Shown here: positions 1 to 4,617 of the stretch, piece by piece | How positions within the stretch are numbered: the stretch's first letter is position 1 | How the letters are laid out: each line of letters starts with the position of its first letter | Origin: a virus | Taxonomy: Duplodnaviria > Heunggongvirae > Uroviricota > Caudoviricetes | Virus record (IMG/VR): IMGVR_UViG_2681813274_000008 | Reading direction: 5' to 3' (one strand) | Length of the DNA: 4,617 nucleotides | Position numbers and translations under genes: made by a program | Notes under the pieces: model-generated | The model's database searches: none | The model's input: the letters and a program-made list of their open reading frames with translations, nothing else | What the model was told of the DNA's origin: nothing

Positions 1-37
1 CATCGGGCATTATCTGAACATAAAACACTATCAATAA
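1..37 (+). CDS. insB: IS1 transposase InsB (InsAB') C-terminal fragment; 5' part outside window
   Basis: Codons 2-34 read I-G-H-Y-L-N-I-K-H-Y-Q followed by TAA at 35-37, consistent with the known C-terminus of IS1 InsB. Recognised from memory, not searched. Confidence 0.75.
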   Translation, partial: IGHYLNIKHYQ

Positions 38-52
38 GTTGGAGTCATTACC
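1..52 (+). mobile_element. IS1 insertion sequence, right-end fragment (terminal 52 bp including the right inverted repeat); body of the element lies left of the window
   Basis: Reverse complement of 1-52 is GGTAATGACTCCAACTTATTGATAGTGTTTTATGTTCAGATAATGCCCGATG, which matches the IS1 right terminus as I recall it (IRR GGTAATGACTCCAACTTATTGAT). The same 28-mer recurs inverted at 4590-4617. Homology ends sharply at 52/53. Confidence 0.88.
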
Positions 53-646
53 TGCGCCCCCCTGTGGAATGTAGTAATAACGTTCCATAACGCGGGCACG
101 CCATATTTCCAGATTTTCAATATCTTCACCGTCTGTAATGGTGTCAGCGTACCCTGTGGACGGCAGACCACTGACGGGTGTTCCCAGTTGCATGGCAATA
201 CCATCATCCGTATTCCCCGCCGATCCCGGTTCGTCTGCCACAACAGGCACCCGGAGAAGACCATCGGCTGCGGTCACCGTCGCCGTCGTGGTAAAGGTCA
301 CCTGATTATCACGCTGGATCTGCGTTCCCGCTGGCAATACCGGCGTCCCCTCTACGCCATCCCAGCGCACAAATCCCCGGGCTGCCACCGCTTCTTTTCG
401 CGGGCAGCGTTTGATTCTGGCGTGCCGGTACAGCCAGTCTTCATCACACACGTCCGGTAACAGATTTCTGGCAAGATAATCGATATACCCGTACAACGTG
501 TGTACGGCTGCAGCCTGTACACGGGCATACACTTCCGCATCCATACGACGAAGCAGCGTATCCTGCTCAAAGCGGGTTAATAAATCGCTCCGGATCATAG
601 AAATAAGTTGCGGGAGGCCGGGGCGATAAAACTGACTGTCAGCCAT
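53..646 (-). pseudogene. Baseplate J-like protein (Mu gp47 / P2 gpJ family), 5' portion only; truncated by IS1 at 52/53
   Basis: ATG at 646-644 with GGAG (complement of 655-658) 8 nt upstream. Open frame of 198 codons (MADSQFYRPGLPQ...ITDGEDIENLEIWRARVMERYYYIPQGGA) runs straight into IS1 sequence. Position directly after the gp46-like gene matches Mu gene order, and the E-x-D...R-x-R...GG motif region resembles baseplate J proteins. The ORF track omits it because no stop occurs inside the window. Confidence 0.65.
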
Positions 647-1049
647 TCAGTTCACTCCAGATATCATCAAAAATAATGTTGTGAATATTGCCGTCACGCT
701 GGTAAATGGTAATGGCAAGTGCCAGCGAGTCTGTCCCGGTCCGGACAGCGTTAATATCAAGACGGGAAGCAACACCATCCTCCACCATCCACGCCAGCGC
801 CTCACGGACATAATCTCTGGCAAGCTGCGGGGTTTTATTTGTCAGCTTGCTGCGTCGCAACAGATACAAACGCGACCCCGTGCGATCATTCTGAACCGCA
901 GGCCAGGTATCCCCCCACCATCCAAATATCCGTGGTGCATCATCACGCCCGGCACGCCGCCATGTAAAAAGCGAAATAATCACAGCACGCGTCAGAAGGT
1001 CGATCGAAGCCCCGGTCGACACGGGTCGCCCGTTAACATTAATCATCAT
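639..1049 (-). CDS. Mu gp46-like baseplate protein (GP46 family)
   Basis: 136-aa ORF; size, position between the gp45-like and gp47-like genes, and motifs (FGWWGD, GSRLYLLRRSKL) fit the phage GP46 family. Its TGA stop overlaps the gp47 start in an ATGGCTGA arrangement. Confidence 0.75.
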   Translation of the reverse strand: MMINVNGRPVSTGASIDLLTRAVIISLFTWRRAGRDDAPRIFGWWGDTWPAVQNDRTGSRLYLLRRSKLTNKTPQLARDYVREALAWMVEDGVASRLDINAVRTGTDSLALAITIYQRDGNIHNIIFDDIWSELNG

Positions 1050-1054
1050 GATTT

Positions 1055-1588
1055 TCAGCCCATCGGTTGATCCGGCGTGTCAGTGATCCCGCCACCATCA
1101 CCATTTTCGGTATGTTTGTGGGCATTGTAGGCCTGCCGCATTTGCTGCATGCTGAGTCCGCCACTGTCGCAATTGTCAGTAATATCGGCGGTGGATTCGA
1201 CTGGCATTTCAAAGCGCGCTTTAGGCGCGTTTTTAAAAATTATGGCCTTCCCGGCCCCGTCCACCACAATACCGGAACGGGTCAGGACAACGGACTGTCC
1301 CAGATCGTCATAAAGCGCCACTTCCCCACGTTTCAGTCCTTTCAGCCGGTAACGTCTGTCAGCCACGACCACAACCACACCATGAGAACGATCGCCCGCC
1401 GGAAATAAAGCAACGCCCTCAGCACCGTTCTGTGCGGCAGATGTAAAACCATAAGGTTCAAGGTGCTCAACGTGTTGTTTCTGATCTCCGGCTATCATTT
1501 TCAACCCTACAGACTGACACTTTCTGGCGGAATCCACCGCCGTGATGACAGCCCGGGAAATCAGATTACGAAGAGAAAACCCGTTCAT
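1055..1588 (-). CDS. Baseplate spike / baseplate assembly protein V (Mu gp45-like)
   Basis: 177-aa ORF; central region PYGFTSAAQNGAEGVALFPAGDRSHGVVVVVADRRYRLKGLKRGEVALYDDLGQSVVLTRSGIVVDG is typical of the gpV/gp45 OB-fold spike family. GGAGG (complement of 1596-1600) lies 7 nt upstream of the ATG at 1588-1586. Confidence 0.85.
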   Translation of the reverse strand: MNGFSLRNLISRAVITAVDSARKCQSVGLKMIAGDQKQHVEHLEPYGFTSAAQNGAEGVALFPAGDRSHGVVVVVADRRYRLKGLKRGEVALYDDLGQSVVLTRSGIVVDGAGKAIIFKNAPKARFEMPVESTADITDNCDSGGLSMQQMRQAYNAHKHTENGDGGGITDTPDQPMG

Positions 1589-2654
1589 CAGAAATCCTCC
1601 TCAACATTTTTTTCTTCCTGGCGGTAACAGGCTCGGGGAGATAAGCATCTGCCGGGCCAACCCGTAATTCAGTCGTCGTGCCCCGGTCGTCCTGGTTATA
1701 GGTAACTTCTGCGATCACCAGTTCATCATTATCAAAATTATTCAGCGGGTCGAAAACGATGACAGATAACCCCGGACGCCATAACGCGCCACTGCCCTGC
1801 CGCCAGCCCTGAACCGTATATGTTGTCTCACGGGTAAGCGCAGCCCGTTGGCGCGCTTCAAATTCACAACGGGCCTTACAGGTTGCTGTCGTTGCTGTGC
1901 CTGACTGCTGAATCAACAAAGGGCGATAACGGGTCACGCCACTGTCCTGAATGGTCTGACGTATTGCGGCAATGGTGGCCTCACCAAAATCATCGTCGTT
2001 GCCCGGGCGCTGCCCACTGACCTGATATTCAGAAAACCGCTCTCTGATGCTTCTTTCCGTGTCACAGGAAAGAATATTCTCTCCCAGCACCAGCACCAGC
2101 ACCAGCGCCGTCGCCGCTTTACCTGTTCCGGGTTTTCCCAGAACCAGTCGCCCGCATTCATCGTCATAAGCCAGCGTCTGAACCTGCCCCAGTAACCGGT
2201 TAAGACAATCGGCAACGGTTTCGCCGTGTTCCGGCTGGGCATCAATCACCGCTGTCTGCGGCACGCCAGCATCAACAACGGTGATGCCAAATGGCGCAGC
2301 CAGTTCACTGACTATTCTGAGCAGGTTTTTTCCGCTCTGCTGGAGTGGCAAAGCAGAGCAGTCAACCAGATCGGCTGTTTTGCTTCGCCCGACAATTCCC
2401 ATGCTGACGCTGCTGGCGTCATAACGAAGCGGTAGTGCCTCCACATATCCGGTGAGCACAGGCTCATCCCCGATAAGCACTTCAACCAGCTCACCATTTT
2501 TTATCCGGGGTTGATAATCCCGGCTTCCGGGCCAGCGGGTGGTAATGGCAACATTAAAATCCCGGGCAATACGGTTAATGCCCGCACTGATACGGACGGA
2601 TGTCCAGCCGCCCCATTCGCGACCGGAAACCCGAAGTAAAACGGTATCATTCAT
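1566..2654 (-). CDS. Baseplate hub protein (Mu gp44 / gene P; P2 gpD late control D family)
   Basis: 362-aa ORF; length and C-terminal region (WRPGLSVIVFDPLNNFDNDELVIAEVTYNQDDRGTTTELRVGP) fit the gpD/Mu P family. Start ATG overlaps the N gene stop (ATGA at 2651-2654); its 3' end overlaps the gp45 start by 23 nt. Confidence 0.85.
   Translation of the reverse strand: MNDTVLLRVSGREWGGWTSVRISAGINRIARDFNVAITTRWPGSRDYQPRIKNGELVEVLIGDEPVLTGYVEALPLRYDASSVSMGIVGRSKTADLVDCSALPLQQSGKNLLRIVSELAAPFGITVVDAGVPQTAVIDAQPEHGETVADCLNRLLGQVQTLAYDDECGRLVLGKPGTGKAATALVLVLVLGENILSCDTERSIRERFSEYQVSGQRPGNDDDFGEATIAAIRQTIQDSGVTRYRPLLIQQSGTATTATCKARCEFEARQRAALTRETTYTVQGWRQGSGALWRPGLSVIVFDPLNNFDNDELVIAEVTYNQDDRGTTTELRVGPADAYLPEPVTARKKKMLRRISDERVFSS
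2085..2106. repeat. Hexanucleotide tandem repeat (CAGCAC) x3.7 within the baseplate hub gene
   Basis: Direct reading: cagcac cagcac cagcac cagc. On the coding (minus) strand it encodes A-L-V-L-V-L-V-L. Confidence 0.9.
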
Positions 2655-4060
2655 CTGACGGGTACCCTTAATGCCCTGACCGGAACAAAGCCCGGATGAG
2701 AGATGGCATTTCGATCCAGGATATCAGTTTCACGGGACGCATCGTCGTACCATGACGCAGCCAGAACAAGCGCAGGCAGAACTTCCGCTGGCGTTCGCTC
2801 TGCGGTTTCCTCCGTCTGAACCAGACGCGCCTGAATATCCCGGTTCAGTTCTGTACGTAATGACGTCAGCTGAAAAAACAGCCTGTCATCCGCCGTACGC
2901 CTGAGCTCCTGTTCAATCGCCGCGTTCAGCGATTTGCGTATGATGGTGAGATTTTCCCGCGTGGGTGGTTGCGCTCTCTCATCCTGTCCTGTGCTGGCTG
3001 CCACGCTGTCAAGTGCCGGATGAGAAACGTGAATAATATCGGACTGACGTTCAGTGGAACCACCAACAGCCACAACCGCCTGCTGATTTTTCACCAGGCT
3101 TCCGGGTTGTGGCAGTGAAGTGACCGCCCTTGTGGCTTCGCTGATTGCCGTCGTCCGGATGACAGCAGCCACAAGGTTTGTCTGCTGTTTTTGCCTGATA
3201 ACCGATGCGGAATCTGTGGGCCACACCGCACGCGGTGCCAGTCCTGGGTCCAGCGTAATGCCGGACATTGTCGTTATGGACTGCACCAGATCCTGTGTGT
3301 TATCCACCAGCCGGGTTCCGGCCCGCCAGGTATCCTGCAACGTATGCACAAAATCACTGGCAACCGACGGCGGCATCAGAATGACGGATAAATCGCCCTG
3401 CAGTAGTCTCGCTCCGGCAGAAACAGCCGAATTAACCATTTTGAAAGCTGTCTGAACGGTTCCCAGCATATCGGTCGTCCGGGCAATAACATCGTTCTGA
3501 ATAAANNNNNNNNNNNNNNNNNNNNNNNNNNNNNNNNNGAGATCAAAATCGCCGAACATGTCTTCAATCAACTCATCCAGGAATACGGACGACTCCTCCA
3601 GTTTTCTGGCGGTTGCAGCTCCGGCGACCGGAAATGACAGTTCCCCGCTCTCAACAAACTGAAATGAAACCCGGCACATACGGCCTTCAGTGCCGGAGTG
3701 AGAAACGGTCACCTGCCCGTCAATACAGCCCTGCATTTCACCGAACTGCGGATGGATCAGCGTCCCCGGCCCGGCGGTTTCAATCGCTGTAATCAGCCTG
3801 TCGCGCTGCTCTGCGTAATCATCACCAACGAGATACGCATTAATCGTCAGCCGTCGCGTGGCACGCCCGAGATCTTCCGTGTACGGTTTGTCACGGTTTG
3901 GGTATTCATGGACCTGAACGCGGCGTCCGAACGAACCCTCGTCGCTCTCCACCGAAAACGGAACGCCACGAAATGAAGCGTCGTAAAGATTATCGCGCCA
4001 ATTGATACCTGAAGATGCAGAAAAGAGTGAAGAAAGAGAAGGTAAAGAAGGTAAGTCCAT
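2651..4060 (-). CDS. DNA circulation protein N (Mu gp43-like; DNA_circ_N N-terminal domain)
   Basis: 469-aa ORF; N-terminal region WRDNLYDASFRGVPFSVES...GRRVQVHEYPNRDKPYTEDLGRATRRLTINAYLVGDDY...GPGTLIHPQFG matches the conserved DNA circulation N-terminal domain. Contains a 32-nt N gap (3507-3538) that happens to keep the frame. GGAG (complement of 4066-4069) precedes the ATG at 4060-4058. Confidence 0.85.
   Translation of the reverse strand: MDLPSLPSLSSLFSASSGINWRDNLYDASFRGVPFSVESDEGSFGRRVQVHEYPNRDKPYTEDLGRATRRLTINAYLVGDDYAEQRDRLITAIETAGPGTLIHPQFGEMQGCIDGQVTVSHSGTEGRMCRVSFQFVESGELSFPVAGAATARKLEESSVFLDELIEDMFGDFDLXXXXXXXXXXXFIQNDVIARTTDMLGTVQTAFKMVNSAVSAGARLLQGDLSVILMPPSVASDFVHTLQDTWRAGTRLVDNTQDLVQSITTMSGITLDPGLAPRAVWPTDSASVIRQKQQTNLVAAVIRTTAISEATRAVTSLPQPGSLVKNQQAVVAVGGSTERQSDIIHVSHPALDSVAASTGQDERAQPPTRENLTIIRKSLNAAIEQELRRTADDRLFFQLTSLRTELNRDIQARLVQTEETAERTPAEVLPALVLAASWYDDASRETDILDRNAISHPGFVPVRALRVPVR
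3507..3538. other. Assembly gap (32 N) inside the N gene
   Basis: Run of n characters; the flanking reading frame is continuous across it. Confidence 0.95.
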
Positions 4061-4065
4061 ACTGT

Positions 4066-4069
4066 CTCC
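4066..4069 (-). promoter_or_regulatory. Shine-Dalgarno (GGAG) for the N gene
   Basis: Complement of CTCC at 4066-4069, 5 nt upstream of the ATG at 4060-4058. Confidence 0.5.
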
Positions 4070-4073
4070 ACTA

Positions 4074-4098
4074 TAAAAAAACCGCCAATTTCTGGCGG
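4074..4098 (-). terminator. Rho-independent terminator (minus strand) downstream of the AT-rich ORF
   Basis: Stem CCGCCA (4082-4087) / TGGCGG (4093-4098) with a 5-nt loop; on the minus strand the hairpin is followed by a run of 7 U (complement of A-run 4074-4080). Lies 9 nt after the TAA (4107-4109) of the upstream ORF. Confidence 0.55.
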
Positions 4099-4106
4099 CT
4101 TATATA

Positions 4107-4589
4107 TTAATCATCATTAATATCTTTCATATTCAATTTGCAATTTTCGTAGGTCACTCCCGACTCGCCATTAACATTAACTCCAGCTCTGATATTCCCG
4201 TTTTCTTTTACATCTACAAAAAACTGGCCTCTTGGCATCTTGAACGCAAATGTAAAACCAACAGTATCTGAATCAAAATCATCATCTTTATATATTGGGA
4301 TCAAAAATGTCATCGTCGCTGGTGATGCATTGTTTGCAAAATCAAATACACCTATACTTTTGCCGAATTCNNNNNNNNNNNNNNNNNNNNNNNNNNNNNN
4401 NNNNNNNNNNNNNNNNNNNNNNNNNNNNNNNNNNNNNNNNNNNNNNNNNNNNNNNNNNNNNNNNNNNNNNNNNNNNNNNNNNNNNNNNNNNNNNNNNNNN
4501 NNNNNNNNNNNNNNNNNNNNNNNNNNNNNNNNNNNNNNNNNAATCCATCTGTATCCAAGTCAACGTCATTATCTGCAGATGTTTTAACG
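4107..4589 (-). CDS. Hypothetical protein, AT-rich ORF of unknown function; interrupted by a 171-nt N gap (4371-4541); 5' end unresolved, possibly truncated by IS1
   Basis: Minus-strand frame open from the gap edge (4370) to TAA at 4107-4109 (...EFGKSIGVFDFANNASPATMTFLIPIYKDDDFDSDTVGFTFAFKMPRGQFFVDVKENGNIRAGVNVNGESGVTYENCKLNMKDINDD). A second open stretch 4542-4589 (VKTSADNDVDLDTDG) continues without a start codon into IS1. AT-rich third codon positions and a terminator immediately downstream support coding. No family recognised. Confidence 0.4.
4371..4541. other. Assembly gap (171 N) inside the AT-rich ORF region
   Basis: Run of n characters; true length and content unknown. Confidence 0.95.
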
Positions 4590-4617
4590 GGTAATGACTC
4601 CAACTTATTGATAGTGT
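4590..4617 (-). mobile_element. IS1 insertion sequence, right-end (IRR) fragment in inverted orientation; body lies right of the window
   Basis: 4590-4617 GGTAATGACTCCAACTTATTGATAGTGT is the exact reverse complement of 25-52 and matches the IS1 IRR terminus. Flanking base 4589 differs from the base flanking the left copy. Confidence 0.85.

Follow-up and report, generated by a model that had tools for sequence, protein, structure and literature searches.

A probable IS1-split accessory gene in a prophage tail module and the predicted exported protein family to which it belongs

The 4,617 nucleotides analysed here (the window), from the virus record IMGVR_UViG_2681813274_000008 (Caudoviricetes), are a piece of a prophage tail module that has its genes on the minus strand and an end of the insertion sequence IS1 at each edge. 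A preliminary description, made from the letters alone, had singled out an AT-rich open reading frame (ORF) at 4107-4589 as an orphan of unknown function lying between IS1 and the baseplate operon. We report that this feature is most probably (we put the probability at about 0.8) the promoter-distal remnant, 382 nt long, of a 483-nt prophage accessory gene into which IS1 inserted at codon 35, splitting it. We infer that this remnant is a pseudogene without function and that the prophage holding it is defective. The product of the remnant could not be exported, since the signal peptide has been lost, and the prophage would be defective because the gene of baseplate protein J is also broken and the end of the hub gene is frameshifted. 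The intact gene belongs to a narrow protein family, PHROG 5586, whose position, distribution and predicted fold are described below together with the functions that may be proposed for it.

For comparison, intact and related loci were designated L001 (E. coli FDAARGOS_944), L002 (STEC316), L004 (RMDEC465), L037 (Yersinia enterocolitica) and L050 (IMGVR_UViG_2189573020_000003), while L013, a near-identical viral contig without N masking, served as the twin of the window (99.8-100% identity, the differences being one substitution and one 6-nt repeat unit). Computed over the 312 known bases of 4107-4589, the G+C content is 35.3% against 54.4% for 53-4060, and the minus-strand frame terminates with ...KLNMKDINDD before a TAA at 4107-4109, Asp and Asn making up 17-20% of the protein. 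The impressions of an AT-rich stretch and of an Asp/Asn-rich product ending in KDINDD were thus accurate. The single ORF drawn across the whole interval did not stand. As given, the halves on either side of the internal gap fall in different frames, the C-terminal frame meeting a stop at 4560-4562, because the length of the gap is wrong: in alignments to L001, L002 and L013 the run of 171 N at 4371-4541 takes the place of no more than 70 nt. Once these are restored, the remnant is a single 382-nt open frame running from V35 to the stop, and its readable parts are 100% identical to the gene of WP_000594909.1 in E. coli FDAARGOS_944. Closing the gap with L013 therefore brought in none of the in-frame stops that would have broken the frame. 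The apparent 483-nt ORF, as judged from these alignments, is partly a product of the wrong-length N-run. The surplus of 171-70 = 101 equals the number of gene bases displaced by IS1, and it is by this coincidence that the interval 4107-4589 matches the intact length of 483 nt. A second run at 3506-3538 has 33 N standing for 15 nt, and such wrong-length runs are probably an artefact of scaffolding or masking. The plus strand, which had been named as a possible alternative, held no better coding signal: the 115-aa ORF at 4240-4587 was rejected, as it exists solely through the N-run, the longest antisense open stretch with real sequence is 73 codons, and no antisense ORF of at least 60 aa was found over the gene region in L013.

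The insertion itself is complete in L013, where a 768-bp IS1 with both IRL and IRR occupies 5232-5999. On its upstream side lie the intact tape-measure gene, an intergenic region of 67 nt and the first 101 nt of the accessory gene, ending in CGTTAAAAC; on its downstream side a second CGTTAAAAC leads into the remainder of the gene, and the corresponding BLAST segments overlap by 9 nt on the intact L001 (8581-8589). The suspicion that IS1 had truncated the 5' end was correct, as this junction demonstrates. IS1 is 768 bp long, produces target duplications of 8 or 9 bp, of which 9 bp is usual, and prefers AT-rich targets (PMC10359306). The hallmarks of a simple insertion are all present in L013, and the window by itself displays one end of the element and one copy of the duplication. 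A second IS1 lies 4.5 kb away in the baseplate J gene, in inverted orientation, and in L013 the J gene continues past it. Each pair of IS1 junctions overlaps by 9-10 nt on the intact reference and the outer DNA is collinear with L001 and L002, so the two copies do not frame a transposon. Both are independent simple insertions into a resident prophage, and the one that interrupts the gene is best read as later than the gene and not as the vehicle of its arrival. It had been said that the gene is flanked by IS1 and that this is a signature of horizontally acquired cargo. An IS1 end does abut the fragment at 4590-4617; "flanked" is nevertheless misleading for one copy inside the gene and another 4.5 kb off, and an IS1 with its own 9-bp duplication is no mark of acquisition. 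The cargo status of the gene has a different basis, given below. The window is, as it were, the stretch between two IS1 copies, which is what would be expected of a short-read contig that breaks at them. The start codon, signal peptide and lipobox now lie on the far side of the element, beyond the window; IS1 has thereby separated the coding body from its start and export signal, leaving in the window only a part that could not be exported.

IS1 is the dominant insertion sequence of Shigella and the chief agent of gene inactivation in S. sonnei, half of whose pseudogenes have been attributed to insertion sequences (PMC7373316). The annotation of Shigella sonnei 4822-66 contains a 37-aa N-terminal stub of the accessory protein whose frame runs on into IS1 (…NVKT-VMLPTY), and all listed S. 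sonnei members of the protein cluster are partial. The source prophage is probably from S. sonnei. Damage by other insertion sequences is found in the same type of prophage: ISEc60 splits the tail sheath gene in FDAARGOS_944 (L001 12619-13809), and IS4 splits the tape-measure gene in RMDEC465 (L004 5428-6774).

When intact, the gene specifies a product of 160 aa that RefSeq lists as a hypothetical protein (WP_000594909.1, WP_032083313.1). Its place is between the genes for tape measure and DNA circularization in prophages that combine an HK97-type head with a Mu-type contractile tail, in E. coli, Shigella, Salmonella and Yersinia hosts. The protein matches PHROG 5586, a family with no assigned function, over its full length (residues 1-160, E 1e-88; the window copy covers 35-160), as do all 14 members that we aligned. 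The label of orphan must consequently be withdrawn, since the family is catalogued already, in PHROG and among the RefSeq hypothetical proteins, but uncharacterised; literature searches by accession, phage name and PHROG number found no paper on the gene. The family is narrow. Word-index searches recovered a handful of 90% clusters, representing E. coli/Shigella, Yersinia enterocolitica and a branch from E. coli and Salmonella to which phage vB_EcoM-720R4 belongs (URC09681.1; 50% identity), and an exhaustive profile search of 1.84 billion representatives yielded only 17 matches below E 0.001. Carriers amount to 11 of 5426 complete E. coli genomes, and a further 40 E. coli genomes have the DNA-circularization gene at 80-90% identity without the accessory gene. 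A species-level scan found two loci only (S. flexneri and E. coli); it rested on two short peptide patterns and is no measure of distribution. The Yersinia allele is seemingly frameshifted within its signal peptide (L037 6975-7010): an upstream ATG opens, in another frame, MKKPIYLCL before a stop, similar to the N-terminus in E. coli, and with the annotated start nothing but MMLISC precedes the lipobox Cys.

The distribution of the gene at the junction of tape-measure and DNA-circularization genes bears most directly on its nature. L004 and L005 have no gene at this site, where 15 nt separate the stop codon of the tape-measure gene from the start codon of the DNA-circularization gene. Viral contigs with a DNA-circularization protein of at least 94% identity comprise seven that carry the gene, about 20 in which the site is empty (junction of about 21 nt) and one with an unrelated gene, so that the junction measures 15-21 nt without the gene against about 600 nt with it (7 loci). 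The unrelated occupant (L050 1920-2375) is an AT-rich gene of 151 aa with its own terminator; its product bears a classic lipoprotein signal, MKKALIILSCLFCLAG/CD (the slash marking cleavage; Asp occupies +2), and matches nothing significantly in Pfam and nothing in PHROG. A further cargo gene was observed in the slot in L043, where a HIRAN-domain gene (2387-2974; Pfam E 8e-9) stands between the tape-measure gene and the family member. The C-terminal variants of the tape-measure protein both occur with and without the gene, and an association of the cassette with a particular variant was not seen. In six tail-module loci the G+C content at third codon positions is 0.26-0.40 for the gene against 0.43-0.59 for flanking genes, and in all tail-module loci examined the gene was richer in A+T than the genes beside it. 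The two most distant members (24-28% identity) are located outside tail modules, where their neighbours are genes for RepA, ParA, a CI-like repressor and toxin-antitoxin systems, and retain the terminator. Both (L035 740-1270 and L036 2919-3413) are in phage-plasmid-like elements, adjoined by HigB/HigA-like and MazE/PemK pairs, ParA and a CI-like repressor, and have an upstream string, TATTTAAATAAATATTTAAT, in common.

Downstream of the remnant in the window, a hairpin followed by a T-run begins 5 nt past the stop codon and ends about 20 nt before the DNA-circularization start codon (4069..4101; predicted RNA fold of -13.6 kcal/mol), which substantiates the terminator that had been noticed by eye. 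Terminator-like sites in 3900-4617 numbered three where 0.2 were expected. A hairpin with a GC stem and a T-run follows the gene in seven of eight family loci, with stem sequences that vary by branch; L040 is without it. Morons, as defined by Juhala and Hendrix and summarised in PMC3594210, are extra genes between otherwise adjacent genes, of deviating base composition, with a promoter and a terminator of their own and with expression from the repressed prophage; the position, the composition and the terminator are found here, and the scans described below detected no promoter. Because of its own terminator, its AT-richness and its absence from many near-identical prophages, the gene appears to be dispensable cargo of the moron type, moving as a cassette of gene plus terminator. 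The earlier suggestion of horizontally acquired cargo thus holds on the strength of presence and absence at one fixed junction. The gap of about 20 nt between terminator and next start is too short for a promoter, and the baseplate genes of cargo-bearing phages would therefore be transcribed by read-through of the terminator. Since late tail transcription must in any case read through it, a terminator kept at this place would make most sense as an insulator of a transcript made in the lysogen, an indirect argument that the gene is expressed independently.

At the protein level, a signal peptide, judged by pattern, is found at the start of all full-length members, and an aligned cleavage motif A-x-A/K recurs across the family (AQA/K, SFA/K, ALA/K, VFA/K, VSA/K and AMA/K). 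The sequences thus indicate that the periplasm is the destination of the intact product. In the E. coli/Shigella allele there is, in addition, a lipobox (LTS/C, residue 15) under a rule of the PROSITE PS51257 type ([LVI][ASTVI][GAS]C, with the Cys within the first 35 residues), so lipidation of this intact allele is possible. One other member fits the rule, and 10 of the 12 tested fail it; in the window copy the region is lost to IS1 and there is no match. Two cysteines, C57 and C150, are conserved. A first AlphaFold2 model from three sequences was unusable (pLDDT 48) and was replaced by one built on the 14-sequence alignment (pLDDT 85, pTM 0.78), in which a helix of residues 24-41 packs on an eight-stranded up-and-down beta-barrel while strand 1 ends with one of the cysteines and strand 8 contains the other. 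The intact protein is therefore probably an exported small barrel stapled by a disulfide.

We infer that the intact protein would act in the periplasm, soluble or membrane-anchored, as a small binding protein that protects the envelope of the lysogen. Among the roles considered, the likeliest, though we advance it tentatively, would be to block the entry of superinfecting phage. This role is favoured because of the precedent of HK97 gp15, the logic of the exclusion proteins Cor and Llp, and the presence of an unrelated exported lipoprotein in the same slot. It is conceivable, with no better odds, that PHROG 5586 forms an unrecognised class of periplasmic superinfection-exclusion proteins and that the junction is a hotspot at which unrelated envelope-targeted cassettes are swapped. 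The cassettes that might then be counted, with equal reserve, are the PHROG 5586 beta-barrel, the L050 lipoprotein and the HIRAN-domain gene of L043.

Several observations weigh against this account, from the split of the gene to its function. The body of IS1 and the 5' part of the gene are not in the window and are known from L013. Nothing connects the protein with exclusion or defence families already known: PHROG 5586 carries no assigned function, and the protein matched nothing in Pfam, NCBIfam or PADLOC, nor did the 14 members in Pfam, PADLOC-DB being searched at E up to 10 for the protein and up to 1 for the members. A profile search of the PDB gave no real match, the best (a Na/Ca exchanger and Prp8, at E 0.08 or worse) being noise, and Foldseek against PDB and BFVD returned nothing significant. 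Consensus scans, which could miss weak or non-consensus promoters, detected no sigma-70-like promoter in the upstream gaps of 47-71 nt (L001, L003 and L037), and a relaxed scan of nine loci found no element common to the branches in the tail-slot loci. Given these null results, expression from a repressed prophage is unproven. L040 has the gene tightly fitted into the operon, with gaps of 16-17 nt and no terminator. Finally, the same slot has been kept in seven branches, down to about 34% identity, which could mean a role linked to the tail.

The main functional rival to entry blocking is that the gene is a moron for host fitness or virulence, encoding a periplasmic inhibitor or binder directed against an attack on the envelope from outside, such as a lysozyme inhibitor of the MliC/PliC kind or an orphan immunity protein that counters a secreted toxin aimed at peptidoglycan. 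We regard this as unlikely, either in general or in these two forms; the window copy would be dead under it as well. Homology to MliC/PliC, suggested by a shared SASG string and the pattern of cysteines, was rejected at the level of sequence profiles (hhalign probability 1%, with the E. coli MliC sequence checked against PDB 2f09, and no Pfam match in the 14 members). The proposal that the fragment encodes an effector or a toxin/immunity component found no backing either, there being no partner gene in the slot and no PADLOC or Pfam match.

Next in order is the reading that the gene is no accessory cargo but a conserved part of the tail module that serves virion morphogenesis or infection, in which case the window would hold a broken structural gene. 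The position right after the tape-measure gene in seven branches, the failure of the scans to detect a promoter of its own and the tight packing in L040 all speak for such a role. It is nonetheless improbable: about 20 prophages with a nearly identical DNA-circularization protein have just the short junction, an unrelated gene can take the place of this one, and the distant members reside in lysogeny and plasmid-maintenance regions. Moreover, a cleavable signal peptide and a probable disulfide direct the product to the periplasm, away from cytoplasmic tail assembly, and the AT bias and the terminator of the gene persist.

By far the least credible reading is that IS1 delivered the gene, for instance in a composite transposon, or that IS1-derived signals now express a new truncated or fused product: two inverted IS1 do indeed enclose a 4.5-kb segment, an ORF of 131 codons can be read from an in-frame TTG within the IS1 end and insA/B are transcribed in the direction of the remnant, but the prophage continues collinearly past both copies, each with its own overlap, which led us to reject the transposon; the gene occurs without IS1 in E. 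coli, Yersinia and phage 720R4; and no Shine-Dalgarno sequence was seen, reading from the sequence, before the TTG or an internal ATG at 4313, so that expression from an IS1-adjacent signal, as once supposed, would lack a start codon with a ribosome-binding site and yield a product that, having no signal peptide, would be shut out of the periplasm, the compartment in which its disulfide would form.

The features of the window are collected in Table 1. In the hub gene, a deletion of 1 nt near 1606, in a T-run at about 1600-1616, was observed relative to the intact E. coli prophage; it changes the C-terminus from …ARKKKNVEEDF to …ARKKKMLRRISDERVFSS, each followed by a stop, and the hub ORF now runs into the gene of protein V. 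The deletion is probably real rather than a sequencing error, because L013 has the same change. The hub gene also contains a CCAGCA hexamer repeat (2084-2095; a Leu-Val repeat on the minus strand) whose copy number varies, the window having one unit more than L013 and two more than L001.

Table 1. Coordinates of features in the 4,617-nt window.
Feature	Position	Strand	Evidence and remarks
IS1 copy no. 2, right end	1..52	+	Within baseplate J; ends ...GGAGTCATTACC; corresponds to IS1 at L013 10412-11179
Baseplate J/gp47 gene, 5' part (~first 198-201 of 360 codons)	53..646	-	tblastn with L001 J protein
GP46-family baseplate gene	639..1049	-	RefSeq annotation of intact locus, tblastn
Baseplate assembly protein V (Mu gp45-like) gene	1055..1588	-	RefSeq annotation, tblastn
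Baseplate hub (Mu gp44/P-like) gene	1566..2654	-	Last codons frameshifted relative to intact prophage
DNA-circularization (Mu gp43/N-like) gene	2651..4060	-	RefSeq annotation of identical locus, tblastn; N-run 3506-3538 inside
Intrinsic terminator	4069..4101	-	Stem GCCGCCAG/TTGGCGGT then T-run; terminator scan
Probable 3' gene fragment, codons 35-160 and stop, PHROG 5586	4107..4589	-	100% identity to WP_000594909.1 gene; L013 frame
N-run, 171 N for 70 nt of real sequence, codons 51-74	4371..4541	.	Alignment to L001, L002 and L013
9-bp IS1 target-site duplication, one copy	4581..4589	-	CGTTAAAAC on minus strand; other copy past window edge
IS1 terminal 28 nt (IRR end)	4590..4617	-	GGTAATGACTCCAACTTATTGATAGTGT, same as IS1 end in L013; remainder past right edge

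For the window alone these results carry little weight, since they add one more IS1-made pseudogene in a decaying prophage of Shigella type, and an IS1 pseudogene in Shigella and moron-like cargo in a tail operon are both well-known kinds. The intact family is of some interest as a narrow group of exported proteins, predicted to be beta-barrels, that holds one slot of a tail module common among enterobacterial prophages while being dispensable. Should the protein indeed serve exclusion or envelope protection, it would add a periplasmic, non-membrane class to the entry blocks set by prophages, and the junction would mark a predictable cargo hotspot in which more of them could be found. Were PHROG 5586 an exclusion class, the IS1 insertion in Shigella would record the loss of one exclusion function.

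Among known systems, the best precedent in position and logic is HK97 gene 15, a moron beside the tape-measure gene whose product, located in the envelope, stops genome injection in a manner that depends on the tail (PMC3594210). Both are extra genes of the tail operon next to the tape-measure gene, absent from related phages, of deviating composition and encoding a small envelope protein. The two differ in that HK97 gp15 (YebO-like) is a single-pass inner-membrane protein, whereas PHROG 5586 is predicted to be a beta-barrel of about 140 aa made with a signal peptide, and in that gene 15 lies upstream of the tape-measure gene and the PHROG 5586 gene downstream of it; no sequence relation and no shared Pfam or PHROG family was found between them. 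The tail region of T5 encodes Llp, a lipoprotein that blocks the receptor. Cor of phi80, N15 and HK022 is a small exported envelope protein directed against incoming phage and encoded among tail genes (PMC3594210), and is in these respects like the role proposed here. No homology to Cor or Llp was detected, and most PHROG 5586 members differ in having a signal-peptidase-I site and no lipobox. With the MliC/PliC inhibitors the family may share a small eight-stranded barrel, here a predicted one with cysteines at its closure, and it has in common with them the existence of periplasmic and lipoprotein versions. As to the insertion, the window does not differ from the IS1 pseudogenes of Shigella: the same 768-bp element, a 9-bp duplication and an AT-rich target make it a typical example.

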